A program made the translations under genes and the position numbers. The notes below the pieces were generated by a model. It was not told where the DNA came from. It ran no database searches and worked only from the letters and a program-made list of their open reading frames with translations. Shown piece after piece: positions 7,691 through 41,344 of a stretch of 64,000 nt of DNA (positions within the stretch are counted from its first letter, which is position 1; every line of letters begins with the position of its first letter). The DNA is taken from the NCBI GenBank assembly GCA_963708075.1, contig OY970194.1:864001-928000 (forward strand), written 5' to 3'. This DNA comes from Sedimentisphaerales bacterium. Lineage in GTDB: Bacteria > Planctomycetota > Phycisphaerae > Sedimentisphaerales > Anaerobacaceae.

Positions 7691-7702
7691 GCGTCGTCCC
7701 TT

Positions 7703-8824: not shown

Positions 8825-8826
8825 CG

Positions 8827-9732: not shown

Positions 9733-9740
9733 GCAGGTCC

Positions 9741-12700
9741 TTAGCGGAGTTGTTTCTCGTATTTTGCCCACAGCTTCTTTGCCACTTCGATGCTGTCCCC
9801 CTGGGGTTGCGTCGGATACGTGTCCCCCTGGTCCGACCAGTCGGCCGTCCATTTTCCGCTCTTGGCCTGGAACGCCTTGTCATCGAATGGTTGGCCGCTC
9901 TTGAGCGATTCGACGAAGTCACGCAGGAACAACTCCCAGCGTTTGAGATAGTATCCGTTGAGCATGCCGGACCATTCCTTGCGGGCGTAGTCATCGAGCG
10001 CCGCGGTCTGGCCCCATTGCGTCAGGACGCGTCGGGCGTTCCACTCAAACCGTGCCCGCTCAGCGTCCGTCGTGCCCCAACGCCTGGCGTCTTCGAGCCA
10101 GCTACCGAGCAGGAACTCCCTGCGCGTTGCCAGCAACTCGTCCACGTCGCGGATCAGTTGCAGGAAGGGTACCGATGCATCATTAAATGCCTGAACATTC
10201 TTATCCTTCGCCGCTTTCATCATTGCGGCGTGAAGCACAGCCGCGTGATTCGACAACACCTGCCGTGCCACATTGGCGAGGTCGAAGCGGAATGTGTCCA
10301 CGTTCCCCAAGTCGTCTGCCGCAGCAAGCAAAGCCTGCCATGCGCCAGCTAATCGCACATTGTTATACGGCGCCTGTGCGGCCGCGGTCTGGACTTGCGG
10401 CCCCTGGTCCACGATGGAACGGGTGTAGTGGGCCCCATCGTAGACGACGTCCAGCAAGATCTCCCAGGCGCGTCGGGCGTCCTCATTGTCCCGGCCGTAA
10501 CGGTGCCATGCGTACTCGCTGATCCATTGCTTGAGATCGACCGGTCCATCCCGCCAGGCCATCTCGAACATCAGATCGTATACGACCGGGTTGTACCCAA
10601 GCCCTTCGTTGACAAAGCCCAGGCCGGAGAGTTTGCCGGAGCGAGGCTCGCATCGAAGAGCCGGAAGGTCCTGGCCGATCCTGCTCAGCGCGCCACTGAG
10701 ATGGACGGAGCGGCCGAAGGTCTCGATATTGCACCACAGCCACGGCTTGCCGCAGAAGGCCTCGGTCTTGTCCCAGGCCGGCGTCTGCTCGCACATGAGA
10801 TCGAGTACGACCATGCGGTCGTCGGGCACGGCGCCGAACATGGCCCGAGCCTGGGGCAGCTTCCAGAAACTCGGATTGTGGACGAAGAGCCAGCCCTGCA
10901 GGACCCACACGGCCTGCGGGTCGCTTGCCGTCATGCCGCGGAAGATGGCTCGCGCCAGATCCGCCAGATAATTCGGGTCATTGCTCGGCGGCTGCATCTC
11001 GATGAAGGTATCGGCGGCATACAGATGGTCCGTGCCGAATCGCTTGGCCTGTTCCTCAAGATATATCGCCGCGAGCCTGGCGAACAGCGGGTCGAGCGGA
11101 TCGAGCAGGCATGTCTCCCATTCGATCCAGCGGATGCGGTGGAGCTTTGCCTGAGGATATTGCCCGGCGATTGGCGATGGCACGTGCCCGGTAAAGCCCT
11201 GTAAGACCGGCGTCATACCCAACTCCCGCTGGCGAGCAAGAATCTTTTTGGCCAGTTCCTCGTGCCGATCGATCCAACTCTGTGGCAGGGGACCGCCCCA
11301 GCCATCGAGGCAGCCCATCCACTGAAACGGCAAGTACGGCGGGCCGGCCAGGAATCCAGTGACCTGTTCATCGGTCATCCCCAGCCGCTTGCATACGGCC
11401 TGCCAGACCGCCTCCTGGCCCGTCACCGCCAGCGGCATATTGACGCCGTTCATCGCCATCCAGTCGATCAACTCCTCCCACTGGCTCCAATCCCACCAAG
11501 GCAGGGAGTACCCGAAACAGCAGTAGTTCAGGAAGTAGCGGTATCTCGCCCAGCTTGTCTGCCGCACTTTCGGCTGGATTACCGGCAGCGGGTCGGGCAG
11601 GTCGAGTTGGCGGCCGTACCACGAAGTGTGACAGTGACAGTAGTGCTTGAGGTACCAGTTCAGGCCAGTCGCCATGGCGACGCCGGTATTGCCGCGAATA
11701 ACGATCTTGCCGTCGCGGCTCTCGATCTCAAAAACATCCTGCCCCTGCTCCGCCGGGATCGCCTCAAAGGTGAAGCGGTCTGCGTGCTCGGGCAATAACC
11801 GTGCGAGTAATGAGCGTGCCGCCGATGACGCCTGGCCGTTCGTGTGGCTGGGTCGGCTCATCGGCGCTTTGTCAAAAGGGCGGTAGTTCACCTCCATCGC
11901 CTTGAACCGCTTCGCGTGCTCGGCAAGCCGGGTCAGGAACACGTCGTAGTTCCGGTCCGCCTGAGGCGACCAGAGGATTTCGCTCATCGCCGCGGCCCGG
12001 GGATAGGTCATGTACTGCAGGTGACTGGCGTTGGTGATGAATTCGCCCCAGAGCTGTGCCTGTCCGCCGAGCACGTGCCTGGCCTGCTCAGCATTGAGCA
12101 CGGCGGGAATCGGCTCATACTGATACACCTTGTCGAGGGGGATGAGCCCGCCGATGGCTTTTGGTTCCTTCTCAGGTGGACCCTGGTAGTAGTCGAAGTA
12201 CGTGTGGGAAGTCGGGGCCATGACGACATCGTGTCCGGCCTTGGCCGCGGTGATGCCTCCGTCCTCTCCTCGCCAGCTCATCACCGTCGCCCCCGGCGCC
12301 AGGCCGCCCTGGAGAATCTCGTCCCAGCCGATCAGCCGGCGGCCATGCGAGGCCAGGAACGAATCCATCTGTGCGATGAACCAGCTATGCAGCCCCGCTT
12401 CGTCCTTGACATCCAACTCCCGGATCAGGGCCTGCATCTCCTCGCATTTCTTCCAGTGCTCGATATTGGCCTCATCGCCCCCGATATGAATGTACTTGCT
12501 CGGGAACAGCTCCATCACTTCCGTCAACACGTCCTGCATGAAGGCGACGCTTTGCCTTCGCGGGGCGAGGACTGCCTCGTGGGCCGTCCATCGCTTGTCC
12601 GGCGGAAGAGCGTTCAGCTTCTCCGGGTACAAGCCGAGCTGCGGGTAGGAGACGATCGCTGCCCCCGTGTGGGCGGGCATCTCGATCTCGGGCACGATTG

Positions 12701-18390: not shown

Positions 18391-21300
18391 TCAGGCGTTG
18401 GTTTGCATGCGTCGACGGGCCCGCCATGCGGCCGGTTTCGTTCGGAGGGCTTCCATGTACAGGTAGAAGACCGGCGTCACGTAGAGGGTCAGGGTCTGAG
18501 AGAACAGCAGGCCTCCCACGACGGCCAGCCCGAGGGGCTGGCGGGATTCGGCGCTGCGCCAAGACCCAGTGCGATGGGCAGGCTACCCATCAGCGCCGCC
18601 ATCGTGGTCATCATGATGGGCCGGAACCGGATGAGGCTGGCCTCCAGAATCGCATCGTGCGGATTCTTGCCCTCGGTCCGTTGCGCCTCGATGGCGAAGT
18701 CCACCATCATAATGCCGTTCTTCTTCACCAGGCCGACGAGCATGACGATGCCGACGAAGGCGTAGATGGAAAGCTCGACGCCGAAGATCATCAGGGTGAC
18801 CAGCGCGCCAAAACCTGCGAAGGGCAACGCCGAGAGAATGGTGATCGGATGAATGAAGCTCTCGTACAGGATGCCCAGCACGAGGTAGATGACGAGGATC
18901 GCCAGAGCGAGGAGCCAGCCGAGCCCTTTCAGGGACGACTGGAAGGCCTGGGCCGTGCCCTGGAAATTCGTGGTGATCGAGGCCGGGAGAGTCGTGGCGG
19001 CCAATTCGTTGACCGTATCGACCGCCTCGCCCAGAGAGACCTCGGACGTGAGGTTGAAGGAGACCGTCACAGAGGGCAACTGGCCCTGGTGGTTGATGGT
19101 CAGCGGCCCGACGCTCGTGCCGACCTCGGCGACCGCATTGAGCGGGACAAGCTGTCCGGTCCTGGCGCGGACGTACAGCATGCTGAGGGCGGAGGGGTCC
19201 AGTTGATACTGATCCTGCAGCTCCAGAATCACGTAGTACTGGTCGTTTGGCGCCAGGATCAGCGAGAACCTGCCGGGAGCCGTAAGCGTTGTACAGGGCA
19301 TCCTCGATCTGGGCGGCGGTGATGCCGGTTGCGGAGGCCTTATCCCGGTCGATCCGGACGTCCACTTGCGGATTCTTCATTCTCAGATCGCTCGTGACAT
19401 CCTGGAAGCCGGGTAGATCGCGGATTTTCTGTTCCATCACCGTGGCATATTGATACAGCTCCTCCGTGCTGGGACTTTGCATCGTGAACTGGTACTGGCT
19501 CCTGGAGACTCGGCCGCCAATGGAGATGGTGGGCGGGTTCAGCAGAAAGACCCGGATGCCGGGAACCGAATTCAGGCCCGGCCTCCATTGCTGGATCAGA
19601 TCGTCGACGCTGTGCTGGCGCTGCGACTTGGGCTTCAGGCGGATCATCAGGTAACCGTTGTTGCCTCCGGAACTGCCGCGAGAACCGGCGCTCGACATGA
19701 ACGAGGCCACTTCGGGTTTCTCGCAGAGCACGGCGGCGACGGCCTGCTGATGCTCGAACATGGATTTGTACGAAATCCCTTCGACCGCCTCCGTCGAGCC
19801 CGAGATCTGCTCGCGGTCCTCGCTGGGCAGGAAGCCCTTGGGGATGTGGAGGAACAGCCAGACGGTGGCCGCCAGGGTGGCTACGGAGAAGACCATCGCC
19901 CCGAGCCTGTGTGCGAGCACCCAGCGCAGTGTCCGCTCGTAGAACCGCAACGTGATCTGGTAGATCCTCTCGGAGAACGCGTAGGCCCGGCCGTGATGGA
20001 CTTCACTGGGGGGACGCAGGAACCGGCTGGCTAACATGGGCGTCAGCGTCAGAGCGATGAAGCCGGACACGAGCACGGCCACGCCGATCGTGACGGCGAA
20101 CTCCCGGAACAGCCGGCCGATCAGACCGCCCATGAAGAGGACCGGGATGAACACGGCGGCCAGTGAGAGCGTCATGCTCACGATCGTGAAGCCGACCTCC
20201 TGGGCGCCATCGATCGCCGCTTTGAAGGGGGCTTTGCCCTTTTCCATGTGCCGCACGATGTTCTCGAGCATGACGATGGCGTCGTCCACAACAAAGCCGA
20301 CCGACAACGTCAGGGCCATCAGCGAAAGGTTGTCGAGGCTGTACCCGCACAGGTACATAACGACGAAGGTCCCGACGATCGCCATAGGCAAGGCTAAGCT
20401 CGGGATCACCGTAGCCGATACATTGCGGAGGAACAGGAAGATGACGAGCACGACCAGAAACAAGGTCAGCAGCAGGGTGTACTCGACGTCCGTAACCGAC
20501 TCTTTGATGGAGAGCGACCGGTCAAACAGGATGTGGATCGTGACGGACGCCGGCAGTTGGTCGCGGAAGGTGGGAAGGAGCTTTTTGACAGCCTCGGCCA
20601 CCTCGACGGTATTGGTGCCGGGCTGACGCTGGACCGCGAGGATCATGGATCGTTGCTGGCCCGTGCCATCAAAGAACCACGCAGCCGATTTGTCGTTTTC
20701 CACGCTATCAATGACTTCGGCCACATCGCCGAGCCGTACGGGCGAGCCGTTGCGGTAGGCCACGATCAGCGGCCGGTAGGCATCGGCCGTGTTGAGCTGC
20801 CCCGACGCCAGAACGGTGAACGCGCGATGCGGGCCGTAGAGAATCCCCGTCGGCATGTTCACATTGCCGGTCCCGATGGCCTCCGTCACTTCATCGATGC
20901 TGATCCCTTTGCTCGACAGCGCCATGGGGTCGAGTTTCACTCTCACGGCATACTTCTGTGAGCCGAAGACCTGCACCTGGGCCACGCCAAGAACAGTGGA
21001 GATCCGCTGAGCCAACAGGGTCTCGGCGTACTCGTTCAGCTCGTATAAGGGAAGCGTCGGACTGGTCAGGGCCAGGTAGAGAATCGGCTGGTCGGCCGGG
21101 TTGACTTTCTGGTACGTGGGCGGACTGGGCATGTCCCGCGGCAGGCGACGCACGGCCCGCGAGATGGCCGCCTGCACGTCCTGCGCGGCCCCGTCGATGT
21201 CCCGCGTCAGGTTGAACTGGAGAGTGATCGAGGTGCCGCCGAGCGAGCTGGACGACAGCATGGAGTCGATCCCGGCGATGGTGGAGAACTGCCGCTCCAG

Positions 21301-21498
21301 GGGCGTCGCCACGGCCGCCGCCATCGTTTCGGGGCTGGCCCCGGGCAGTGACGCCGACACCGAGATCGTGGGGAAGTCCACGTTCGGCAGGTCGCTCATC
21401 GGGAGCTGGCGAAACGCCGAGATGCCGAACAGCAGGATCGCCAGCATGACGAGTGTCGTCATCACCGGCCGGTTGATGAACAGGGCGGAGAAACTCAT
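18391..21498 (-). pseudogene. RND efflux permease (MdtB/MdtC-like), two apparent frameshifts (~19268, ~18554)
   Basis: FINRPV, LPNVDFPTI, GFVVDDAIVMLENI and GLVKKNGI..RFRPIMMTT motifs. Removing one T at ~19268 and adding one G at ~18554 restores QVSLILAP and [18 protein letters not shown]...NA*. Confidence 0.85.
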
Positions 21499-22742
21499 GG
21501 ATTACCTCGCTTCGCCTTGTCATCGACACTCTGGGGCGTTGGCGACTGCGGGGAGTTCTTGATCTGCACGCGCGCCCCCGGCACCAATCGAAGCTGGCCA
21601 TCCGTGACAATCACCTCGCCTGGCTGCACCCCCTCGACCACCGTCTCGCTGTTGACGGCTCTCTTTGTCGTGATCGGCCTCGCCTCGACGCTCTGGTCCG
21701 GCTTGACGACGTACACGAACTGGTTGTTCTGGCCGGTCTGGATAGCCTCTGATGGGACGACAATGGAATCCGGCTCTTGCGCGATCGTCAGGACGACGTT
21801 GACGTATTGGCCCGGCCAGAGTCGCCCATCCGCATTCGCAAATGTGGCACGCAAATGGATGGTGCGGTTATCGGGGTCCACGGTATTGTCGATGAAGGAC
21901 AGAATGCCGTGGATGGCTTCACCGCTCTCGCCGGGGGGCGTCACTGCGACGTCCAGCTCATGGGGCGCCATCTCTCTCTTTATCGCGGGCAAGTGATTCT
22001 CCGGGACCCAGAAACTGACGTAGATCGGGTCCACTTGCCTGACGCTCACGACCGCAATGTCGTTGGCCTTGATCAGATTGCCCTGGTGGACGTGCAGGCT
22101 GCCGGTGCACCCGTCCACCGGCGAGCAGATAGAACAGTAATCGAGCTGAAGAGCGGCGTCCTCGATTGCCGCCTTGTTCGCGCTGACTGCCGCCCGCAGC
22201 GTCTCCACGGCCGTCATCGCCTGGTCGTAGATATCCTGGGAGGCGTACCCCTTCTGGAGCAGTTCCGTCTGGCGTGCGGCCTCTCTCTCTGCGTTCTTCA
22301 GTTGAGCTGTATCCCTCTCCAGGTTGGCCTGGGCCATCTTGAGGGCGGCCTGGGGCTGGCGAGCGTCAATCGACAGGAGCTTGTCTCCCTTCTTCACCAT
22401 CTGGCCCTCGGTGAAGTGCACCTGCGTCAAGACGCCGGTGACCTGGGCTTTGATCTCCACGTTCGCGTAGGCTTGGACGGTGCCGAAACTCCGCACGGCG
22501 ATGGGCGTGGTCCTCTGTTCCACGGTGGCCACGCTGACCGGAACCGCCATGCCGCCTTCGCCCCTGGGGCCTTTCCCGGCCGGCGACTCCTTCGGGCAAC
22601 CGGCAAGCAGGAGCAGGCTCACTACTGAAAGCATGAACCCGAAAGAACAATAACGGTGTCGCCGGTGAGGATCCCGGTTCTGGATTTCAAATTTCAGACC
22701 TCGAATTTCTAGTCTCACGATCATAGCATTTCCCGCGAGCAT
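21495..22742 (-). CDS. RND efflux membrane-fusion (periplasmic adaptor) protein
   Basis: VEIKAQVTG, EGQMVKKGD, SPVDG and LWPGQYV motifs; stop overlaps the permease start (ATGA). Confidence 0.9.
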   Translation of the reverse strand: MLAGNAMIVRLEIRGLKFEIQNRDPHRRHRYCSFGFMLSVVSLLLLAGCPKESPAGKGPRGEGGMAVPVSVATVEQRTTPIAVRSFGTVQAYANVEIKAQVTGVLTQVHFTEGQMVKKGDKLLSIDARQPQAALKMAQANLERDTAQLKNAEREAARQTELLQKGYASQDIYDQAMTAVETLRAAVSANKAAIEDAALQLDYCSICSPVDGCTGSLHVHQGNLIKANDIAVVSVRQVDPIYVSFWVPENHLPAIKREMAPHELDVAVTPPGESGEAIHGILSFIDNTVDPDNRTIHLRATFANADGRLWPGQYVNVVLTIAQEPDSIVVPSEAIQTGQNNQFVYVVKPDQSVEARPITTKRAVNSETVVEGVQPGEVIVTDGQLRLVPGARVQIKNSPQSPTPQSVDDKAKRGNP

Positions 22743-22745
22743 CGA

Positions 22746-24377
22746 TTATCGATCCGCTTGAAGTGGAGTCGCATCGGACAATTCTACGGGTTCGCGTCCC
22801 GGGCCGGCAATCCCCCGGCGCTCCAGCAGCGAACCTTCCTGCCGGTACATCTCCACGAACGACTGCAAATAGTTGACGACGGCCTGGACTTCGGTGATCT
22901 GGCTCAAAACCAAGTCCCGCTGCGCCTGGGCGACGAGCAGGGAGGTGGATTTGCCGAGGCGGAACTTCTCTGTCTCCGACCGCAGCTTCTCCTCCTGGAG
23001 CTTTAGCGTGGCGGCGGTGGCGGCCACCTGCTCTTGCGAGCGGGCGATTTCCAGATACGCTGTCCGGACGTCCACCTCGATCAGTTGGGACAGGTTATCG
23101 ATCGCCTCGCGTGCCTGTTGTCGAGTGAGCACCGCGCGAAGGTGGCGGGCCTGGGCGCCGCGATTCAACGGTGGATACTCGATATTGAGCCCGACCAGCG
23201 TGTCATAGCTGTCCCCATCGAGGTCCTCAAGCGATCTGCCGAACGAGTCCGCGTAGCCGGTCTTGCCGAGGGTGACGAACAGGTCCAGCCGCGGCAGTAG
23301 GCCGTTGCGAGTCTTGACTACTTCGAGATCGCCGCGCTGCCAGAGGAGCTTCGCCTGGTTCAGGTCGGGGCGCATCCGCATCGCCAGCGCGACATGGGTT
23401 TCCACGTCGTCAAGCGTGATGGAAGGGATCGTTGGGAGGCTGGCAAGCTCGACCTGCCGGTCCCAGGGATTGCCGCCGGGCGGATTGACCAGTCGCAGCA
23501 ATATCAGCTTGATCTTCGCCAGGTTACTGCGGGCGTTGATGAGATTCTCGCGGCGCGAGGCAACTTCCGCCTCGGCGGCCGAAAGCTCGGTCGCCGCTAT
23601 GTCGCCGACTCTGATCCGTTCGCGGGTCTCCTCCAGTTGCTTTTGAGCCAAATCCAGCGACTGGTTGAAGATCTCGATCCGGCGCTCGGCGAGGGCGTAA
23701 TCCCAGTATGTCTGCTCCACCTGAGCGACCAGCGTCTGGGCGAACCCGCGCAGCTCGTATTGCGATATCCGCGTGTCAATCTTTGCCTGGTTCACGGAGG
23801 CCAGGTTCACCGTCGGTCCAAAACCACGGAGCAGCGACTGGGTCGCATTGAACGCGATTCGTGATGCCCGTTCATCGTCAGTAAGTCCCGCGAGTATGGC
23901 GGGAAATGTACTTCCCGTGACGCCGAGAGAGGTGCCTGTCGGCAGAAACTGGTCAACGCCGACTGCGGCGGAGACCCCGCTGACCTCAGATGTTATCGGT
24001 CCTGCATCAATCTTCTCTTTCTCATAGGCCAGTTGTCCGGTCAGAACCGGATCGAAGACAGCGCGTTGCTCCTGCTCGAACGTGCGGGTGATCTGCGGGT
24101 CGATTCGCTGCACGATGAGCGATTTGTTGTTCTCCAGCGACAGCAAAGTGGCCTGTCCGATAGTGATTTGGAGAGGACCCTCGCTATCAGTGGCCGGCTG
24201 GATGGGTGGCGCATTGACTTCGGCAACGGCATTGGCCTCTGCAGGCGGCTCCGATATCTCCGGGCCGATATAGTCGGCGGGACTGCGGACCTCGTATGGG
24301 GCGCAGGAATGACACGCGCAGGCCAGAAGCGATACCGCCAGAAGACCTGGAATGGACCGCAATCGCATGATGCCCAT
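22746..24377 (-). CDS. TolC-family outer-membrane efflux protein
   Basis: Signal/lipobox-like N-terminus, two helical OEP-like repeats (LPRLDL, FRLGKST); first gene of the RND operon. Confidence 0.85.
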   Translation of the reverse strand: MGIMRLRSIPGLLAVSLLACACHSCAPYEVRSPADYIGPEISEPPAEANAVAEVNAPPIQPATDSEGPLQITIGQATLLSLENNKSLIVQRIDPQITRTFEQEQRAVFDPVLTGQLAYEKEKIDAGPITSEVSGVSAAVGVDQFLPTGTSLGVTGSTFPAILAGLTDDERASRIAFNATQSLLRGFGPTVNLASVNQAKIDTRISQYELRGFAQTLVAQVEQTYWDYALAERRIEIFNQSLDLAQKQLEETRERIRVGDIAATELSAAEAEVASRRENLINARSNLAKIKLILLRLVNPPGGNPWDRQVELASLPTIPSITLDDVETHVALAMRMRPDLNQAKLLWQRGDLEVVKTRNGLLPRLDLFVTLGKTGYADSFGRSLEDLDGDSYDTLVGLNIEYPPLNRGAQARHLRAVLTRQQAREAIDNLSQLIEVDVRTAYLEIARSQEQVAATAATLKLQEEKLRSETEKFRLGKSTSLLVAQAQRDLVLSQITEVQAVVNYLQSFVEMYRQEGSLLERRGIAGPGREPVELSDATPLQADR

Positions 24378-24566
24378 CAACACGTTACCTTTACCTTTTG
24401 CCGCAAAGACCCATGATAGACGCTTGCGGGGGGAAGGAAATTGCCGCCGTGTTGCCTTGTACCATTTCCCGCAAGAGCTTATAGGTTAGCGCGAAGTCGC
24501 AAGAATAGGCCATCAGCGGCGAAATGTCCAGAGGTTCTTTGACTCGATAGGTCGAGCGTCGGATTG

Positions 24567-29500: not shown

Positions 29501-32500
29501 TCACTCGAAGCCGTAGGTCGAGATCTTAGATTCATTGCCGTCCGGGCGGTGGTCCAGGACCATGTGAATGAAGCGGATGTTCCTGGTTTTCAACTGGTCC
29601 AGGATGCTTTGGGATACTCCTGGCTCAAGCCGGGGCTCGAACAGGAAATTCTCGATGAAGTTGTGATGCTCCGGCCGGTACGTCTGAGAGTAATAGCCTT
29701 CCAAGATGATCGGCTCGGCAGCGAGTCCCTGGATCGTCGTGCGGCCCCATCGTTTCAGCGGCGCGGTTGACCCCGCATCCGCCACCCAGTCCGTCTGTCC
29801 CGGCGGCGGGACGGGGTAGTAGAAGGTCGTCTGGATTGAGACGCCGTTAGAGGAGAAGATTCTCTCCTGGAAGATGTCGTCGTCGCTGGGTTCTGTATGC
29901 AGCCAGAGGCGGACCCGGTTCGCCGTGGTGGAGCGCAGGCCGGAAGATGGACCGCCGTTGCCGATCTGCTGATACCACGACATCACAGGATGCTCGTACT
30001 CCGCATCCAGTGTCAGGCATCTGAAGGGCACATTGAATGCACGCGGGCCCAAGTCGGACAGCGTGAACACTGGACTCTGTGTCTGCAGGACGGACGTTGG
30101 GATCTTCGCGGTACGCAGGTGGTACGTGCGAGGGTTGCCCAGGTCGGGCAGTCGCCAGTTGTCCACAACGTCATTGCCATCGTAGGCATGCTCCGCGAAA
30201 GGCAGCAGGGGCATCTCGCCGCTGATCGTGCGAACCTGGTCGTCATCCAGGTACTCAATGTTCACCTTGGTGTAGAGGCCCCGGCTCAGATTGTTGCTGT
30301 CCAGCGTCATGCTCAGTGTTTCGAGCGTCCAGCGGGACTTCAAGCGATGATCGGCGAAAACATCGGTGGGATCAAACAGGTCGAACTCACCCGTATAGAC
30401 TTCGAATTCCGCCGGCGAGTTGACCAGGAAAGGCGTCTGCCTGCGGTCCGGCGATGGCACCTGGCGCACCTGTTTGACGATCAATCCACCCGTGGGCATC
30501 GCCTGCCCGCCCGGGCCCACCTTCTTGTATTCCAGGTCGAGGATGTAGGTGGTCTTGCCTGTCACGGTGCGGAACTGATCGCTGACGTCCATCAGCAGGC
30601 CGACCAGATTCCTGTAGTCGTTGGGCCAGTCCATGACGGTCCTGCCGACGGGGACGAGACTGGACTGGCGTTTCTGCGAGGCCGGCGTCAGCTTCACGAA
30701 CCCGGTGGACAGTACCTCGACGACGACCTCTTCCGGAATGGCCGCGCCCTCGGGATTGGTCACGGACACCGAGCCCTGCTGGGTGACGAGGGTCACAATC
30801 GTGTTCTGGCCCGCGCCTTTTCTCTCGACGGTGGCCACGCCGTTGGCCAGCTCGATTTCATCGGGGAAGGAGTGGTGGACGAGCAGGGCCATACCTACCT
30901 GTGCCTCGTTCACGTCACGGCGGAGCCGCTCGAGGAACGCATTATCATTGTAGAAGCTCGCGAACGCCTGCCGGATTGCCTCGAAGGCCCCGTCCTCGGT
31001 TTCGTCGTTCGGATCGCAGGCGCAAGGCCCGGCCGTGTCGTCGTCCAGGTCGTCGGCGAGGCAGCCGCTGTAGCTGTCGTACATGCCCGCCCCGACGAAA
31101 TCGTCACTGTCCTCCACGTTGGTCGAGCTTCGAAACCGCAGCTTGGCGCTGGGGTCAAAACCATATTGCGGGTCGGTCAACACGTTGGCGACGGCGTCGC
31201 GAAGTGCCGGATCAAGAGGCGTCAGGCTGCCGCTGGTGAAGAACGTGCGAATGGACGCCAGGTCGGCCGCCAGCATCTGCAAATCGTCAGGCGGGTAAGA
31301 ATCGTATTTCGAAAGCCGCTGCCGGATTTCCTGACGAAGTGTCGCCCCGGTGGTGGCGGGGGGGATCTGCCATTTGGTTGGCTCATTTACATCGTCGGTC
31401 AGGTACAGGCCGTTCAAGACGATGGCGCGGTCCGAGGCGTTGTACAACTCGATCCAATCGGGGTACTCGCCCGGCTCGCACGGGTCCTGGATGGTTTGTG
31501 TGTTGGCGGCCATGAGCTCATTGATGACCAGCCCGGGACCAGTCCGGCCGGGCTCGCCGGAGTTCGGCCGGCCGGGCGTCGGTTTGGTGAAGGACTCCCA
31601 CGTGTCGCCGCCATCCACGGATCGTCCATACGAGACATCGTTGTTCTGACGCCCGAAGTTGATCACATCGATCCGGGTGGCGCCGTCGCGGGCGTACAAA
31701 GCCACGGACTCCCCACCCTTGCTCAATGCGAAACTCGTATGTGTCGGGCCCTGTTCTTCGTCGTCATCGACCCAGAACAGCATGTGCTGCCCCGGTCCCA
31801 GGATCATCTCGGGAGCGGGCAGCAACGGTTGATCGAGGAACGCGTTCCACAGATCGAAGCTCAGGGCGATGGCCTTCGGACTATTGTCAGGGATTGCCCG
31901 GCGCAGCAGGCCCGAGTTGGCGGCCTTGCCCCCGAAATACTTCCCATCCACAGGAATCAGCCCGTCCGTCGATGTACCCATCGCCCCATAGGGAACCATG
32001 GGCGATATGTTCAGCGCAGCCGGCCGCTTGAGATCGAGTATCTGCGCCACCGTCGCATCGTCCAGAAGACCATTCGTATCGATCAGCTTGATATCGACGG
32101 CTCCATACTGGTCGTCGTAGGCGCTGTAGATGATACGGTTTCCCACCAGTTGTTGTGCCCGCTCGGCATCGTCCGGCACGGCCAGGTGAACGAACGGCAC
32201 GGCATAGCTTTTGGCCAGGATGGCCACGTGGGAGTTCGGCGTCGATGGCGCCAGGGAGACGATGCCGGCCAGGAAAGGCACCTCGGCGGGAATGCCATCC
32301 GTGAGCAGGATATCGTTCGGCGCAAGCTGTCCGCTGTGATAGGCCGTATCAATCTCGCCGGCGGGAACGAACTTCAACAGGCCTAGGGCCCAGCCCTGTG
32401 AGTAACAGGTATTGCCCTTGGCCCACCGGGCCGTGGAACCCAGCGATATGCCTTGCGACTCGAACCAGTCGCGGTCTTTCTCGGCGGCTGACTGCTGTTC

Positions 32501-33040
32501 ATAAGTCGGAAAGTACAGGGCCTGCACCTCGGGCGGGGCCCCGATGCTCGCCTTCACCAGGTTGAACATGTCGCGAATCTGCTCGCGCTCATAGGGGTCC
32601 TGCCGCACGAACTGGATGCCGTACTCGTTGAACTGCGCCTGCGGCGGTGTCCCGCTCGTCGGCGGAAAGATGACGGTACCCAGGACCGCTTTCTGATTAT
32701 CCCGGAACAGGGTGACCGCATTGAACTGCTGCACGCTCATTCCGATGAACGGCTCCAGGTACTTGACCGCGAATGCATAATGGAACATGAACTTCTTGCT
32801 GTCCTGGAAGCAGAGCTTTGGACTGTTGGGATCGAGCAGGATGGTGAACTTGACCCACCTGGCGCTGCCTTCCTGGCCATAAGCGAGGAATGCATCATCA
32901 GGGAAGGTGATCTTGTCCTTGGAGACCGAATTGGTCGTCTGGCTGTATGCGGATGAAGAACACACGATGGCTATCAGACATGTCAAGCGCATCCACAATG
33001 CCAGGTTATTCCCTCTGGTTCCGCGGTTCATGGTCTTCAC
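29501..33040 (-). CDS. Exported PEP/pyruvate-binding (dikinase-type) protein with His-swivel motif and inserted lamin-tail domain
   Basis: Signal peptide; NSHVAILAK; FGGKAAN; RFRSSTNVED...GAGMYDS; DLEYK...KQVR; LTD motifs VINELMAAN, DWIELYN and SYGR..DG...W...PTPG..N. Confidence 0.8.
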   Translation of the reverse strand: MKTMNRGTRGNNLALWMRLTCLIAIVCSSSAYSQTTNSVSKDKITFPDDAFLAYGQEGSARWVKFTILLDPNSPKLCFQDSKKFMFHYAFAVKYLEPFIGMSVQQFNAVTLFRDNQKAVLGTVIFPPTSGTPPQAQFNEYGIQFVRQDPYEREQIRDMFNLVKASIGAPPEVQALYFPTYEQQSAAEKDRDWFESQGISLGSTARWAKGNTCYSQGWALGLLKFVPAGEIDTAYHSGQLAPNDILLTDGIPAEVPFLAGIVSLAPSTPNSHVAILAKSYAVPFVHLAVPDDAERAQQLVGNRIIYSAYDDQYGAVDIKLIDTNGLLDDATVAQILDLKRPAALNISPMVPYGAMGTSTDGLIPVDGKYFGGKAANSGLLRRAIPDNSPKAIALSFDLWNAFLDQPLLPAPEMILGPGQHMLFWVDDDEEQGPTHTSFALSKGGESVALYARDGATRIDVINFGRQNNDVSYGRSVDGGDTWESFTKPTPGRPNSGEPGRTGPGLVINELMAANTQTIQDPCEPGEYPDWIELYNASDRAIVLNGLYLTDDVNEPTKWQIPPATTGATLRQEIRQRLSKYDSYPPDDLQMLAADLASIRTFFTSGSLTPLDPALRDAVANVLTDPQYGFDPSAKLRFRSSTNVEDSDDFVGAGMYDSYSGCLADDLDDDTAGPCACDPNDETEDGAFEAIRQAFASFYNDNAFLERLRRDVNEAQVGMALLVHHSFPDEIELANGVATVERKGAGQNTIVTLVTQQGSVSVTNPEGAAIPEEVVVEVLSTGFVKLTPASQKRQSSLVPVGRTVMDWPNDYRNLVGLLMDVSDQFRTVTGKTTYILDLEYKKVGPGGQAMPTGGLIVKQVRQVPSPDRRQTPFLVNSPAEFEVYTGEFDLFDPTDVFADHRLKSRWTLETLSMTLDSNNLSRGLYTKVNIEYLDDDQVRTISGEMPLLPFAEHAYDGNDVVDNWRLPDLGNPRTYHLRTAKIPTSVLQTQSPVFTLSDLGPRAFNVPFRCLTLDAEYEHPVMSWYQQIGNGGPSSGLRSTTANRVRLWLHTEPSDDDIFQERIFSSNGVSIQTTFYYPVPPPGQTDWVADAGSTAPLKRWGRTTIQGLAAEPIILEGYYSQTYRPEHHNFIENFLFEPRLEPGVSQSILDQLKTRNIRFIHMVLDHRPDGNESKISTYGFE

Positions 33041-34953
33041 TCGGAATCAAGCCCCTGCAGATTGGATTGGGAGGCTTCTATGGTGCCGCCGTAGGCCCCC
33101 ATATTGATGATATAGCCGTTGGGAAACATCTCACGGCCCACAAAGCCGCTCGGATCACCCGCATCGATACAGGGACTGAAAACGGCATCCTTCATCCATC
33201 GACCTATCCTAGCGTCCCACCGACCGGTTTTAGATCGCAAATGGTAATCGCCCATGACCCAGGCGGCGCCTGGGGCATCTGGTTCGACTTCTACGTCCGG
33301 GTGCTCGTCATCCACCCAGTACCCCTGGCCGGCAAACAGTGGATCGGCCATGAGATTGCCCGAGCCCGGTGAGCCGCCCGTGATGTCGCTGTAGCTTATG
33401 TCGATCGCCCCGGTCCCGAGATGGAGCACTTCACTCGGCGAATTGCCCCAGAGAATCGAGTTGGTCACGACCACGTGACTATTCGATGAGTACAAACCTG
33501 CGCTCGATTCGCCGGCATGGTTATCCGCGATCGTGCAGTTGATGAACAATGCGTTGCTGTCGGCGCAGGACACGATCGCGCCATTCGAATCGCTCGCACG
33601 GTTGCCCGCAATCAGGCAGTTGGAGACGATGGGGCTGCTGGCCGTGCATCGGATGGCCGCTGCGCGATCGTCCTTGCCGCCCGTGATCACAAAGCCCTCC
33701 AACTTGCAGTCCGGGCCCTCGCCGCGAGTGAAATTCACGACCGGACCTGTCCCGCCACCTTCGATCGTCGGCCACCGAGGGTTGTTGGCTTCGGCCGGAT
33801 CAAATCCGGTTAACCAAATTCCTTTGCCGAGCAGGTCAATGTTCTCGCGGTACCTCCCCGCATGGACAAAGACAGTCGCTCCGTCGGCCGCAGCATCGAT
33901 CGCCTCTTGAATCCGGTCAAAAGGATGTCCCCGCATCCCGTTCTCCTTTGGATCGCTCACGCTCGCGTCGCCCGGGCGGGGATCGCTGGAGGCGTCGTCA
34001 TCCACATGGAGCACACGCGCGTCCATCAGGGAATCATCGGGAAGGTCGTGGTCGCCACTGGGGTCGTTCACACTCCTGAAGTTCGCCCGGATTTGATGGT
34101 CCTGCTCAACCGTTACGGAGACGGGATTGTCCGACGTGATGTACGTGCCGGAAAAGCCGGCGAACACGAAGCCCGGTTCGGCTTCCGCCTGCACGAAGAC
34201 GATCTCGCCGTTGTCGTACAGGAACTCACCCTCTCCGGGATCGCTGATGTGCCCTCCCGCCGTGGAGGAGAATACCACTCGGTGCCGGGCACAGGCGTTA
34301 TGCCGGATATCCAGGCCGGGATTGTTGGCGATGATCTGTGGGATGTGAACGGTGCACGCATTCGTGTTCAGCGGATTGCCGCGGATGTCGAGAAACGCAA
34401 GTTCCGTCAGTCCCGCAAGGGCCGAGATATCGCTGAACTGATTGTACTGGAGGTTGGCCTCCCGCAGATTCGTCAGACCGGACAAGCCGGAGATATCGGT
34501 GATTCTATTCCATTCAAGGTGGAGATGGCCCAGGTTGGTCATACCCGACAGCGCAGAGACATCGGTAATGGAGTTGTACCGAATGATCAGCGTCTCCAGG
34601 TTGGTGAGCCCGGCCAGAGGCGATATGTCACTGATGACGTCATTGCCATGACCGTCCAGAAAGCGGAGATTCGTCAGGCCGGCCAGGGGCGAAAGGTCAC
34701 TGATCCGGTTCCACCGGATCCACAGCCTCTCCAGGTTCAAGGCATGCTCGATGCCCGTCAGGTTGGTGATCCCCCTGTCCTCTGCGGCCAGGGAGGTCAG
34801 GCCCAGCATGTCCTCCGGCGTCGGGTCCGATATCCACAGCGTCTCCTCGACGACGGCTTTCAGGTGAGGATCGGCAAAGTAGACCGGGTCCGACGCCCAG
34901 ACAGGGACCCATAGCCACAATAACAGCGCCGACGCAAGTACTACCCTACCCAT
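33037..34953 (-). CDS. Exported LRR + InlB-B-like repeat + beta-helix protein, paralog A (~7 LRRs)
   Basis: Signal peptide; 22-aa internalin-type LRRs; ST.GG...PGEG..F..FSG...ANF; PFD.IQEAID beta-helix; C-terminal GDYHL.S..GRWD...SPCIDAGDP...NMGAYGGT. Confidence 0.85.
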   Translation of the reverse strand: MGRVVLASALLLWLWVPVWASDPVYFADPHLKAVVEETLWISDPTPEDMLGLTSLAAEDRGITNLTGIEHALNLERLWIRWNRISDLSPLAGLTNLRFLDGHGNDVISDISPLAGLTNLETLIIRYNSITDVSALSGMTNLGHLHLEWNRITDISGLSGLTNLREANLQYNQFSDISALAGLTELAFLDIRGNPLNTNACTVHIPQIIANNPGLDIRHNACARHRVVFSSTAGGHISDPGEGEFLYDNGEIVFVQAEAEPGFVFAGFSGTYITSDNPVSVTVEQDHQIRANFRSVNDPSGDHDLPDDSLMDARVLHVDDDASSDPRPGDASVSDPKENGMRGHPFDRIQEAIDAAADGATVFVHAGRYRENIDLLGKGIWLTGFDPAEANNPRWPTIEGGGTGPVVNFTRGEGPDCKLEGFVITGGKDDRAAAIRCTASSPIVSNCLIAGNRASDSNGAIVSCADSNALFINCTIADNHAGESSAGLYSSNSHVVVTNSILWGNSPSEVLHLGTGAIDISYSDITGGSPGSGNLMADPLFAGQGYWVDDEHPDVEVEPDAPGAAWVMGDYHLRSKTGRWDARIGRWMKDAVFSPCIDAGDPSGFVGREMFPNGYIINMGAYGGTIEASQSNLQGLDSE

Positions 34954-35024
34954 GTCCTCCTCGGATGCGAAGTTGCCTGGAGCGTCAGGAAGATCCCTCT
35001 GTGCGACACCCATTTGAAGCGCTT

Positions 35025-35053
35025 ATCATAGCAAAAAAATCCGGGATTTTCAA
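35025..35053 (-). promoter_or_regulatory. sigma70-type promoter (extended -10) of paralog A
   Basis: TTGAAA-N17-TATGAT with TG-n before the -10. Confidence 0.55.
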
Positions 35054-35240
35054 GAGAAAAGTGGGATTCATCTATCTGGGGTGTGGCTACATTTCGTGGC
35101 ATGGCTCTGGCTTCGGGCCAGAAGGTCGTGCGAGGCCCCATGGCCTTTGAGATATCGGCGGTCCCGCGTGCACGGCGAGCGTCCTCGGTCGCCTCGTGAA
35201 GCTATTGAGACCCGTGAGAATCAGTCACTCGCATCGGCCT

Positions 35241-37118
35241 TTAGCGCCCGCCTCTCCATCCGGGGACTATGGATGGCATGTAGGACTTGCATGCCTGGGC
35301 TGTGCCGCCGTAGACGCCCATATTGATGATACCGCCATTCGGGAACGGCTCGTCGCCCACCCAACTGCGCGGATCGCCGGCATCGATGCAGGGGCTGCTC
35401 GCCCTGTCCCGCACCCACAGGCCCGAGGCGGGGTCCCAGCGGCCGGCCCTGGACTTGAGGTGATAGTCGCCCATGATCCAGACCGCATCGGGGTTGGTCG
35501 GGCTGACAACAACCTCCGATCGATTGGGATCTACCCAGGAGCCGGTCCGTACAAACAACGGGTCAGTATCCACGTTCCCCCGGCCCGGCCAGCCGCCGGC
35601 TATGTCACTGAAGCGAACATAGGGGGCGACACCTTCCGCGCTGATTCCTGTGGGGGCGTTCGCCCAAATGACGGAATTGACCACCACCACACGGCTTTCG
35701 CGCAGACACAAGCCCGCGCCATTGTCGCCGGCATGGTTGTCGGCAATCACGCAGTTGATGAATGCCGCCTGGCTGTCTTTGCAGAATACCGCGACGCCAT
35801 TCGGATCCGTCGCACGGTTTCCCACGATCAGGCAGTTGGCAATCGTCGGACTGCCGGCGACGCATTGGATTGCCCCGGTGGACCGGGCTCTGCCACCCGT
35901 GATCGTGAAACCGATCAGCATGCTGTTGGGGTCTTCTCCGCTGGCAAACCTCACGACCGTATCGGCCCCATCCCCGTCGATGACCGGCCATGTCGCTCCA
36001 TTGGGTTCGTTGACCTCCATTCCGATCAGCCGAATGCCTTTTCCGAGGAAATCGATGCTCTCGCGATAGACTCCCGGGGCGACGATGATGAAGGCGCCTT
36101 CGGCAGCGACTTCTATCGCCTCCTGGATCCGGTCGAACGGACACTCGGGTGTCCCGTTCTGCAGGGAACGGCTCTCCGCGGGCACGGGGGCATCCCCGTT
36201 CTGAAGGGCGAGGTTGCTGACGTAGATGACGTCCCTTGTACACAGGAAATTGGCTCGCATCACGAAGTTGTCGTCCATCGTGAGGTACAGGGAACTGCGC
36301 GGCTCGGAATAGCTGCCCGACCAGTTGAGGAAGACGAAACCAGGTTCCGCCTCCGCCTGCAACCAGACGACCTCACCGTGCTCCCAGGTGAACTCTCCTT
36401 CACCCGGATGTATGACCGAGCCGCCTGCAGTTGATGAGAGCACCAGGTGTCGGCGCGTCGATGGGTAATATGCCAACCACATTCCCGGATGGTTCTGAAG
36501 CATCTGCGGGATGTGACTGCCATAGGTTTCTTCGCTCAAGGGATTGATCCGCAGGTCCAGCCATTCGAGTGACGGCAATTCGACCAGGCCGAAGATGTCG
36601 CTGACCTGGTTCCTGTGCAAGTCGAGCGAGCGCAGCCGGGACAGGCCGGACAGGGGGGAAACGTCCCTGACCTCATTGCGCTGAAGGTTCAGGATCTCGA
36701 GATTGCCCGCTGACGAGAGGGCCGAAATATCGCTGACTTCGTTGCTGAAGAGATCCAGTTCTTCCAGATTACTCAATCCGGCGAGCGCCGAGATGTCGCT
36801 GACCCGGTTGCTCCTGAGCGACAGCACCCGCAGATTGGCCAGGCCGGACAGAACTGCAATATCGCAGATGTCGTTGTTGGGAAGTTCCAGGGTCTGCAAG
36901 TTCGTGGCAGACTCCAAGCCCGTCAGGTCGATGATGCCATCGTCGCCTGCATAAAGACAGGTCAGCCCCAGCATGTCCTCCGGCGTCGGATCCGGGATCC
37001 ACAATTCCGCCTCTACCGCCTCCTTGAGGTTGTCGTCGGCAAAATAAACCTGCGCCTCCGCGCACACCAAACCCGACCAAGACAATGCCAGGAATAGCAC
37101 AAGTAGTCGCTTTTCCAT
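35241..37118 (-). CDS. Exported LRR + InlB-B-like repeat + beta-helix protein, paralog B (~7 LRRs)
   Basis: Same architecture and motifs as paralog A. Confidence 0.85.
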   Translation of the reverse strand: MEKRLLVLFLALSWSGLVCAEAQVYFADDNLKEAVEAELWIPDPTPEDMLGLTCLYAGDDGIIDLTGLESATNLQTLELPNNDICDIAVLSGLANLRVLSLRSNRVSDISALAGLSNLEELDLFSNEVSDISALSSAGNLEILNLQRNEVRDVSPLSGLSRLRSLDLHRNQVSDIFGLVELPSLEWLDLRINPLSEETYGSHIPQMLQNHPGMWLAYYPSTRRHLVLSSTAGGSVIHPGEGEFTWEHGEVVWLQAEAEPGFVFLNWSGSYSEPRSSLYLTMDDNFVMRANFLCTRDVIYVSNLALQNGDAPVPAESRSLQNGTPECPFDRIQEAIEVAAEGAFIIVAPGVYRESIDFLGKGIRLIGMEVNEPNGATWPVIDGDGADTVVRFASGEDPNSMLIGFTITGGRARSTGAIQCVAGSPTIANCLIVGNRATDPNGVAVFCKDSQAAFINCVIADNHAGDNGAGLCLRESRVVVVNSVIWANAPTGISAEGVAPYVRFSDIAGGWPGRGNVDTDPLFVRTGSWVDPNRSEVVVSPTNPDAVWIMGDYHLKSRAGRWDPASGLWVRDRASSPCIDAGDPRSWVGDEPFPNGGIINMGVYGGTAQACKSYMPSIVPGWRGGR

Positions 37119-37344
37119 AGCCTTTCCTCCGCCATGCGGCCCCTCGCAGGCGTTGTCCTGGATACAGGACGTATTTCGCCCGGGAAAATTTCACTCGTTG
37201 TGAAAAAAAGTGCATTTGGAGGCGGAGATCGACGTGCGCGGATTGGGCAGCCAGGCGGATGCGAATGACGGACAGCAGTGGATGTCATCCGAACGAGTCC
37301 CTGCTCGGCGGGGGGTATATATGTGGTAGCCTTGGCGAGAATCC

Positions 37345-39147
37345 CTATGGGAAGAGGGGGGATTTGCTGGCTTCTGCTGTACCGCCGTAGACGCCCATGT
37401 TGATGATTGCGCCGTTGGGCGACGGCTCTTGACCGATGGGAGCAGCGGGATCGCCGCCATCGATGCACGGGCTGGTGACTTCGTCCGGCAGCCACGTGCC
37501 TGTCTTCGGGTCCCAGCGGCCGGCTCGTGATTGCAGGTGGTAGTCGCCCATGACCCAGATTGCATTGGGATCGTTCGGCGTGACCGTCACGCCGGGATTG
37601 CCCCGATCTGTCCAGCGGCCGAGGCCGACGAATAAAGGATCGACCGTGAGATTGCCCAAACCCGCCCAGCCGTCCGCCACCACGCTGTAACGAATGGAAG
37701 GCAAATCATCCCCTTCCGTCAGGATCGCCTTGGGCCAGTTGCCCCAGAGAATGGAGTTGACCACAGCCACCTTGGCGTTCACAAGGGACATACCGGCGCC
37801 GAATTGTCCTACGTGATTGTCAGCGATCGTGCAGTTGATGAAGGCAGCGTTGCTGTCCGTGCAAAGGACCGCGGCGCCATTCCAATCAGTCGCACGGTTG
37901 CCTGCGATCAGACAGTTGGAAATGGTCGGGCTGCTTTCCGTGCAACGGATGGCCGCGGCAGTTCGGCTCGTGCCTCCGGTGATCACCAGGCTGGCCAGCA
38001 GGCAGTTCTGATCCTCCTTGTGAGTGAAACTTACCACCGGACCGTTGCCGCCTCCGTCGATCACAGGCCATGCGGCTCCGTTAGGATCGTTCGGATCAAA
38101 CCCCGTCAGTGCGATGTGCTTGCCCAGGAAATCGATGGTTTCCCGGTATGTCCCCGCATGCACGAAGATGGTTGCACCTTCGGCGGCGATGTCAGTCGCC
38201 TCGCGAACGCTGTCGAATGGATGCTCACGGGTCCCGTTCTCCTGCGGGTCGCTGATCGCCCCGTTGCCCGGGCCCGGGTCGGCCGGAGCATCATCATCCA
38301 CGTGGATCACACTGAGGATGCTGACGAAATTGGCCCGCATCGTGTAATCCTGATCCACCTTCAAGGGCAGCGGATTCTGGGTCGTGACCCACGAGCCGGA
38401 CCACCCCGCGAAGGCGAAGCCGGGATCGGCCTGGGCCTCCAGCGACAAGGTCTCGCCAAAGGCAACGGTGAACGTTCCTTCGCCCGGGGTGACCACCGAT
38501 CCGCCGGCCGACGCGGAAAGCACCAGTTGACCGGCAAAGAACCCGTCGTACAACACGGTGATGCCAGGATTGTTTGCCTTGATCTGCGGGATGTAGGTAT
38601 GGTATGCATCCTGGTTTAGCGGAAGAGCACGCAGGTCAAGCCACGTGAGAGACGTCAGGCCCGCCAGAGGCGAGATGTCGCTGATGAGGTTCCTGTGAAG
38701 GCACACGGACGCCAGATTGGGCAGTCCGGAGAGAGCCGAGATGTCAGTGACCTCGTTCGATTCAATGTCGAGGGACTCCAGCTCCATCAAGCCGGACAAC
38801 GGGCCAATACTGCTGAATCCGTTGCCGAGAAGGGCCACCGACCTCAGATGGATCAACCCGGAGAGGGGGGACAGGTCATAGACCGTGTGGTACTTGAGGT
38901 TCAGGGTAGTCAGATTCATCGCGTATTCCAGGCCTGAGAGGTTCGAGATGGCATTGATTCGCTGCCATGTGAGGGGAATCACCAGTTCTGTCAGGCCGAG
39001 CATATCGGTCGGCGTCGGGTCCGAAATGAACAGCTTATCCTCTACGGCGGCCTTCAACTTCGGATCGGGGAAATGGACGGGCTCTTCGGCCCACGCCGTA
39101 CCGAGGAGAAGGCTGGACAACACTAGGGCAAGAGGTATTCTCCTCAT
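37345..39147 (-). CDS. Exported LRR + InlB-B-like repeat + beta-helix protein, paralog C (~6 LRRs)
   Basis: Same architecture; GGAG RBS before ATG 39147. Confidence 0.85.
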   Translation of the reverse strand: MRRIPLALVLSSLLLGTAWAEEPVHFPDPKLKAAVEDKLFISDPTPTDMLGLTELVIPLTWQRINAISNLSGLEYAMNLTTLNLKYHTVYDLSPLSGLIHLRSVALLGNGFSSIGPLSGLMELESLDIESNEVTDISALSGLPNLASVCLHRNLISDISPLAGLTSLTWLDLRALPLNQDAYHTYIPQIKANNPGITVLYDGFFAGQLVLSASAGGSVVTPGEGTFTVAFGETLSLEAQADPGFAFAGWSGSWVTTQNPLPLKVDQDYTMRANFVSILSVIHVDDDAPADPGPGNGAISDPQENGTREHPFDSVREATDIAAEGATIFVHAGTYRETIDFLGKHIALTGFDPNDPNGAAWPVIDGGGNGPVVSFTHKEDQNCLLASLVITGGTSRTAAAIRCTESSPTISNCLIAGNRATDWNGAAVLCTDSNAAFINCTIADNHVGQFGAGMSLVNAKVAVVNSILWGNWPKAILTEGDDLPSIRYSVVADGWAGLGNLTVDPLFVGLGRWTDRGNPGVTVTPNDPNAIWVMGDYHLQSRAGRWDPKTGTWLPDEVTSPCIDGGDPAAPIGQEPSPNGAIINMGVYGGTAEASKSPLFP

Positions 39148-39230
39148 TGTTTTCTCCACGAAGTGACTTCGCGTATCCGATAGCAGGCAGATCCCTCCGC
39201 GTCATGGATGCCCCCATGCAACCAGGTTCG

Positions 39231-39259
39231 AGTATAGCAGTTCAGATGCGAGATTTCAA
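39231..39259 (-). promoter_or_regulatory. sigma70-type promoter (extended -10) of paralog C
   Basis: TTGAAA-N17-TATACT with TG-n. Confidence 0.55.
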
Positions 39260-39284
39260 GGAAAACCTGTACGGTGTCGCCTCC

Positions 39285-41344
39285 TCACGGCGAATGAAGT
39301 TGAGGACCCGATTTGGCGGCTTCGGCGGTGCCGCCGTAAGCGCCCAGGTTGATAATTCCACCGTTGGGCAGCGGCTCACGGCCAACCGGGATGGCCGGGT
39401 CGCCGGCATCTATGCACGGGCTGGTTGCTTTATCCTGTAGCCATTTGCCGGTTCTCGGGGTTCCAGCGACCTGTCTGTGACTGCAGATGGTAGTCTCCCA
39501 TGACCCAGAGTGCGCTGCGATAGTCCGGCTTGACGGTCTCCCGCAGGATTGTCTTTATCCACCCAGTGGCCGGCTACTGCGAACCGCGGATTGGCAGAAG
39601 AATTCCCCACGCCGGGCCAGCCGCCTGCGACATCGCTGTAGCGGACAGTGGGCTTGCTCGTGTCGCTGGAGAGGATTTGCGCCGGCGCGTTGCTCCAGAG
39701 GATCGAGTTGGCTACGATCACGGGACTGTTGCGCAAGTACAGAGCGGCACCGGTCGCGCCCGCATAGTTGTCGGCAATCGTGCAGTTGATGAATGCGGCA
39801 TGGCTGTCCGTGCAGTAGATCGCTGCACCATCGGAATCGCTCGCACAGTTGCCCACAATCAGGCAGTTGGAAACTGTCGGGCTGGCGGCGGTGCATAGGA
39901 TCGCTCCCGCCTGCCGGCCTTTGCCTCCCGCGATCACAAGACCCGTCAGCAGACAGTCTGTGCCCTCGTTGTGCGTGAAACTGACGATCGGACCGATGCC
40001 GCCGCCATCGATCACCGGCCATGCCGCTCCGTCGGGATCATCCGGATCAAACCCTGTCAGCTCGATGCGCTTTCCGAGCAGGTCGATGTTCTCGCGATAC
40101 GTCCCCGCATGGAGGAAGATCGTTGCGCCACTGACAGCCGCATCGATCGCCTCCTGGATTCGGTCGAACGGATGCTGGCGGGTCCCATCCTCCCGGGGAT
40201 CGCTGATTCCTGGATTTCGGGGGCCAAGGTCGCCCGGAGCATCGTCATCCACGTGGATCGCAGTCCGCTCGCTGACGAAATTCGCCTGGATGTCATGATC
40301 CCGATCCATGGTTATGAATGCGGGATTCTCCGCAGAACTGTATGTGCCTGAGAAGCCGGTGAACTTGAAGCCGGGATCGGCTACTGCTTCCAGGCGGACT
40401 GTTGCGCCTTCCTCGAACCCAAACTGACCTTCGCCGGGAGAGACCACGGATCCGCCGGCCGTCGTGGAAATGGATAGCCGCCGAGAGGTGCACGGATCGT
40501 ACTGCAGGTGGATGCCCGGATTGTTTGCGAGGATCTGGGGGACGTAAACGGCACACGCGTCGCTGGACAAGGGATTGTTGGCAAGATCCAGATAGCCCAG
40601 GGACGTGAGACTCGCCAGGGCCGCGATGTCACTGATCAGGTTGCCCGAGAGTTGCAGCGATGTCAGGCCGCTCAGGCTGGACAGCGGCGAAAGGTCGCTG
40701 ATCTGGTTGGCGTAGACACTCAGGGTTTCCAGATTGCTCAGCCCGGAGAGAGGCGACAGATCACTGATCTCATTGATGCCCAGCCGCAGGGCTCGAAGGC
40801 CGTTGAGCCCGGAAAGAGGCGAGATGTCGCTGATCTGGTTGCCTTCCAGGATGAGAGTCTCCAGACTGGTCAAGCCTGATACTGCCGAGGCGCTGCTGAT
40901 CTGGTTGGCGTGGAGGTCCAGCATCTCCAGCTTGCTCAGGCCCGCCAGCGGGGATATGTCGCTGATCTCATTGTCATGGAGGATCAGGCTGCGCAGATCG
41001 GTCAGGCCCGCCAGGGGCGACAGATCGCTGATGTTGTTCTCGTTGAAAGCCAGGCTCTCCAGATTTACCATGCCGGCCAGGGGCGCCAAGCTGGTGAGCT
41101 GGCTGTGAATGCATTCAAAGGTGCGCAGGTTCATCGCGTATTCCAGGCCCGTCAAATCCGCAATGCCCACTCCGCTCGCGTCGAGAAAGGTCAGACCCAG
41201 CATGTCCGCGGGAGTCGGGTCCGTGACCCACAGTTCCATCTCGACGAGTTCCTTCAGCTTCGGATCAGCAAAATAGACCGGTGACTGGGCCGATAGGGAA
41301 CCAGCCGGCGCCAATAGCAGCAACACGACGAGGACCTGTCGCAC
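39285..41344 (-). CDS. Exported LRR + InlB-B-like repeat + beta-helix protein, paralog D (~10 LRRs; two apparent +1 insertions near the 3' end)
   Basis: GAGGAGG RBS and GTG start. Removing one base at ~39541 and one at ~39452 restores WVMGDYHLQSQTGRW...SPCIDAGDP...NLGAYGGTAEAAKS...*. Confidence 0.8.

Follow-up and report, generated by a model that had tools for sequence, protein, structure and literature searches.

The minus strand of a 64-kb window of Sedimentisphaerales DNA (contig OY970194.1, positions 864,001 to 928,000; the window is this whole stretch) holds an open frame of 1179 amino acids (29501..33040) that encodes a swivel-histidine dikinase, predicted to be exported. Its acceptor is tentatively placed in the amino-acid or peptide class, the leading class of candidates but not a majority one. 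The chemistry is that of known swivel-histidine dikinases; neither its predicted export nor its acceptor domain nor its permuted insert was found described in the literature searched. Directly supported are the domain order, the invariant catalytic residues, the fold matches, a permuted lamin-tail domain (LTD) insert and the linkage to an array of leucine-rich repeat (LRR) genes.

Domain order and catalytic core

The protein starts with a predicted Sec signal peptide (residues 1–33, 32942..33040, from sequence and a hydrophobicity heuristic) and an α/β N-domain (residues 41–208, 32417..32920), followed by a phosphohistidine swivel domain (residues 209–335, 32036..32416) with His271 (codon 32228-32230). 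A first ATP-grasp part (residues 351–405, 31826..31990) carries Lys372, and a second one (residues 563–862, 30455..31354) Arg637, Ser656, Glu837, Gln857 and Arg859. Between them lies the circularly permuted LTD (residues 406–562, 31355..31825), C-half then N-half, and a β-rich C-terminal domain (residues 868–1179, 29504..30439) closes the frame; all features are on the minus strand. Pfam matched PPDK_N (E 1.6e-10) and LTD (E 7.2e-10) in the frame, and its PEP-utilizers match was weak and below cut-off.

The first-pass annotation had described a histidine placed before the ATP-grasp, dikinase-type ATP-grasp motifs and no recognisable pyruvate barrel, and all three descriptions held. His271 precedes every named ATP-grasp motif, i.e., Lys372, Arg637–Asp644, Gly650–Ser656, Glu837 and Gln857–Arg859. 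A swivel domain with the relay histidine and a PPDK_N-type ATP-grasp with its nucleotide-binding residues are both present, and all catalytic residues are invariant. According to a predicted model and structure search, the ATP-grasp fold is unbroken around the 157-residue insert. Top structural matches of the model were RPH and HpeI, the matching region being the ATP-grasp only. The PEP/pyruvate-binding barrel PF02896 had no match in the frame; the genome's four PF02896 matches lie outside it, one of them in a canonical PPDK. The C-terminal domain consists mostly of strands in the model and is restricted to this clade among the sequences compared. Also clade-specific is an Asp-rich loop in ATP-grasp part two, where Cys660 (119/119), Cys673 (99) and Cys675 (116) would suit a disulphide. 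Activity by the RPH/GWD mechanism is probable.

Predicted export, family and the permuted insert

Signal-like starts were scored with a heuristic of our own, i.e., a charge-free hydrophobic 10-mer within the first 45 residues and a non-negative n-region. The dikinase passes this rule, as do 102/113, 90/115 and 93/144 Met-starting homologues in three sets, compared with 79/2400, 29/2400 and 63/2940 internal control windows. In a domain scan of 36 of about 390 homologues, selected for extra length, we found fusions to a type IX secretion system (T9SS) tail, SLH, RTX, CUB, cadherin, Fn3, LamG, dockerin and LRR; a CPT-like kinase was present in one protein and a protein-kinase domain in another. 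Two giant surface proteins (P0242 and P0243) contain two complete dikinase modules apiece. The signal peptide noted at first pass is supported by the rule and by the surface-type fusions (T9SS tail, SLH, dockerin), and we regard export from the cytoplasm as very probable.

The dikinase is not a singleton; it belongs to a very large family, of which it forms one clade. A search with the 1179-residue protein returned 1642 proteins among 7999 candidates, the best 120 listed at 53–100% identity; named relatives among the matches were Sedimentisphaerales/Phycisphaerae, and the query matched 25/41 genomes of the order, one of the 25 by the LTD alone. The genome holds five paralogues, with one further LTD-bearing member, two lacking the LTD (one frameshifted) and one minimal form of 651 amino acids comprising signal, N-domain, His domain, ATP-grasp and nothing else. 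Searching with this minimal form gave 3916 proteins among 7992 candidates, and its profile matched 2211 clusters at E under 1e-30 in 1.84 billion representatives; weaker matches will include ordinary PEPS. A quick tree of 47 rows placed the C-domain clade on a long branch with 100% SH-aLRT, LTD-less rows falling outside the main LTD group. Paralogue C (L012:8264-11231) is frameshift-split near the site of the LTD insert in other members, and may represent either a sequence error or a pseudogene. Two further PPDK_N proteins of the genome (C1:2730102-2732972 and C1:3355048-3357756) have neither barrel nor signal; one is without a recognisable swivel motif and one is in RPH order.

Residues 406–562 match PF00932 in two stretches of swapped order (39.6 bits, cut-off 34.3), and both halves are kept in this order in 118/118 homologues. 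The insert aligns unbroken (E 4e-23) to the junction of two tandem LTDs in a signal-peptide CotH kinase of the same genome, and in paralogue B the flanks of the insertion site are joined directly. In the model the insert is all strands (pLDDT about 83–95); whole-model structure searches listed no LTD chain. At the sequence level, the permuted LTD is a clear natural example of circular permutation enabling domain insertion. CotH is described as a Ser/Thr protein kinase in the excerpt of PMC7821199. Genome-wide there were 90 LTD and 31 CotH matches, with a CotH domain no more than 5 kb away from 82/90 LTDs and an LTD at 28/28 CotH loci; 22/28 CotH frames had a signal-like start, several candidate starts being considered per frame. 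CotH matches number 10–31 per genome in 24/24 genomes of the genus, including three without a match to the dikinase query; this therefore indicates that exported enzymes using ATP abound in the lineage, and shows no specific partnership.

Directly upstream of the dikinase gene lie four signal-peptide LRR / InlB-B-repeat / β-helix genes on the minus strand (33037..41344; 33037-35013, 35241-37118, 37345-39159 and 39410-41344), about 50% alike. The dikinase gene follows these four and closes the array, and its GTG start overlaps the stop of the preceding LRR gene. An LRR-type gene stands directly upstream on the same strand at 17/21 LTD-type loci and is missing at 4/21, counting loci with more than 1 kb of upstream DNA (6 with too little were excluded), of which two pairs could each come from a single genome; kin are not independent. 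None of the LTD-less loci has one (0/5). An array-type LRR cap is fused to the N-terminus in 2 of the best 120 homologues. Two frameshifts that may be assembly errors interrupt array gene 39410-41344, one near 39540 and one near 39455. Elsewhere in the window, 18492-24383 (minus strand) encodes an RND-type efflux set of outer-membrane factor, adaptor and permease, the permease frame seemingly broken near 19300-18500.

The acceptor and rival explanations

The N-domain matched neither Pfam nor PDB sequences. Its Lys64 and His87 are invariant in 62/62 diverse rows, while identity between clades is 10–26%. From position and conservation, it is likely to form the acceptor site. We propose that the dikinase, predicted to be exported, would cleave ATP into AMP and phosphate, with His271 receiving the β-phosphate. 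In the N-domain, this phosphate would probably be handed on to a surface acceptor of amino-acid or peptide type, on one of its amine or hydroxyl groups. LTD, C-terminal domain and LRR neighbours may act as positioning or recognition modules.

A plasmid search yielded three Streptomyces proteins that align with the minimal form over 92–93% of its length and are 24% identical to it. An N-domain profile built without Streptomyces rows scored 17–29 bits on the N-termini of 120/120 listed Streptomyces sisters (controls under 2); all 120 keep the relay-His motif and 1/120 passes the signal rule. At 3/3 loci read, the sister gene lies between an ATP-grasp ligase gene and an MFS gene (L035:10475-15302, L036:10481-15161, L037 ~6400-11300), and a divergent PAS/HTH regulator stands beside this operon. 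Close homologues number at least 120, from many Streptomyces. Our literature search found no paper on the operon, which is likely an orphan phospho-peptide pathway. In the tal cluster for phosphoramidon biosynthesis, the PEPS/PPDK-like kinase TalE N-phosphorylates a dipeptide (excerpt of PMC6482885). We rank a peptide or amino-acid acceptor first because the gene logic of the Streptomyces sister matches that cluster.

Several points weigh against this ranking. The Streptomyces sister has about 24% identity to the minimal paralogue and its own long branch, and the three loci are closely related. TalE has a similar tagged size (~79 kDa), but its last four residues, taken from a primer, do not show the ATP-grasp terminus that the Streptomyces sister has, a comparison of size and primer ends only. 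Given the low N-domain identity between clades, acceptors may differ. With CotH expanded across the genus, the LTD could be no more than a frequent donor domain; LamG/ConA lectin fusions suit glycans equally well, and no extracytoplasmic ATP source was identified. That the enzyme represents a new class of surface protein or peptide kinase, transferring the β-phosphate of ATP by way of phosphohistidine to envelope proteins, at their N-termini or side chains (candidates being the co-encoded LRR proteins or their ligands), beside ~28 secreted CotH kinases in an ATP-fed extracytoplasmic system of Sedimentisphaerales, is a more specific idea that we consider unlikely.

A surface or substrate polysaccharide may instead be the acceptor, GWD-like in function, which we hold possible but doubtful. 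The acceptor domain – His – ATP-grasp order is that of GWD1, LamG/ConA fusions occur in L031, L032 and P0304, the neighbour genes include β-helices, and Atlas rank 2 for the N-domain, at a score of 0.77, was a GWD1_pHisD cluster, which serves as a lead only. Set against this, there is neither a carbohydrate-binding module (CBM) nor a 20-helix central domain, and the small N-domain also occurs in a cytoplasmic enzyme whose operon is of small-molecule type. GWD1 also passes its β-phosphate to water (excerpt of PMC13553574), and together with the 31 CotH matches here, most with signal-like starts, and 10–31 across the genus, this would suit exported nucleotide processing, i.e., ATP to AMP and two phosphates, or the reverse, a phospho-donor recharging AMP for secreted CotH kinases. 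Such a role appears improbable, as a conserved separate N-domain with invariant Lys and His implies a second substrate site and simpler hydrolases would suffice.

The RPH and HpeI matches, and the swapping of acceptor domains among family members, could point to an exported kinase of RPH type whose target, inactivated or tagged by it, is a small molecule other than a peptide, such as an antibiotic or an aromatic compound. The match is confined to the ATP-grasp, however, the RIF-binding domain is absent, the genome has a separate signal-less enzyme in RPH order, and long adhesin-stalk fusions fit fixed surface targets better; we give this explanation little weight. A cytoplasmic or catalytically dead protein, with hydrophobic start or motifs incidental, is very improbable. 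Swivel movement could be impeded by the 157-residue insert, the signal peptide was scored by a heuristic rule, and such kinases as Bacillus subtilis CotH need not be exported, but signal-like starts, T9SS tail, SLH and dockerin occur in the family, all catalytic residues are invariant and the ATP-grasp fold is intact.

ATP-driven enzymes are not expected outside the cytoplasm. Thousands of proteins that combine an intact active site with an unclassified acceptor domain, export signals and surface anchors imply ATP use there and a phosphorylation as yet unknown. The acceptor can be tested for directly in the three-gene Streptomyces operon, whose hosts are culturable, and in the 651-residue minimal paralogue.

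Comparison with known dikinases and kinases

To our knowledge, PEPS/PPDK-type dikinases of known function are cytoplasmic or plastid. Their canonical order, i.e., ATP-grasp, His and barrel without a signal peptide, is not that of the dikinase. Compared with RPH (PDB 5hv1) and PEP synthase (2ols, 8a8e), the order is acceptor domain, His, ATP-grasp; RIF-binding domain and pyruvate barrel are missing, and signal peptide, LTD insert and C-domain are added. In RPH the RIF-binding domain stands between the ATP-grasp and a C-terminal His domain, and the dikinase scored 17.5 bits against NCBIfam PRK06241 (cut-off 883).

GWD1 runs from acceptor side through His domain to an RPH-like ATP-binding domain, and the acceptor side of StGWD1 comprises two CBM45 and a central domain of 444 residues with 20 helices (excerpt of PMC13553574). 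As in GWD1/PWD, the acceptor side comes first and the His domain stands directly ahead of the ATP-binding domain. In contrast, the dikinase is bacterial and predicted to be exported, its ATP-grasp is not C-terminal in this clade, and no CBM family was found in the frame (Pfam scan to E 1), where ~170 residues of α/β type precede the His domain, judged by size and model secondary structure. Because of the different GWD1 acceptor side, only the order is common to both; with an N-domain shared with a cytoplasmic Streptomyces enzyme, the glucan-water-dikinase link drawn at first pass is not supported beyond analogy.

With CotH kinases of this genome the dikinase shares the LTD module and signal-like starts. 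The catalytic fold differs, a CotH match is absent at the dikinase locus, and the dikinase LTD is permuted and inserted. TalE, likened by gene setting, is a PEPS/PPDK-like kinase beside ATP-grasp ligase and MFS genes, as is the Streptomyces sister; the tal cluster has a glycosyltransferase, none of which was seen beside the sister, and TalE is non-exported, unlike the predicted state of the dikinase.
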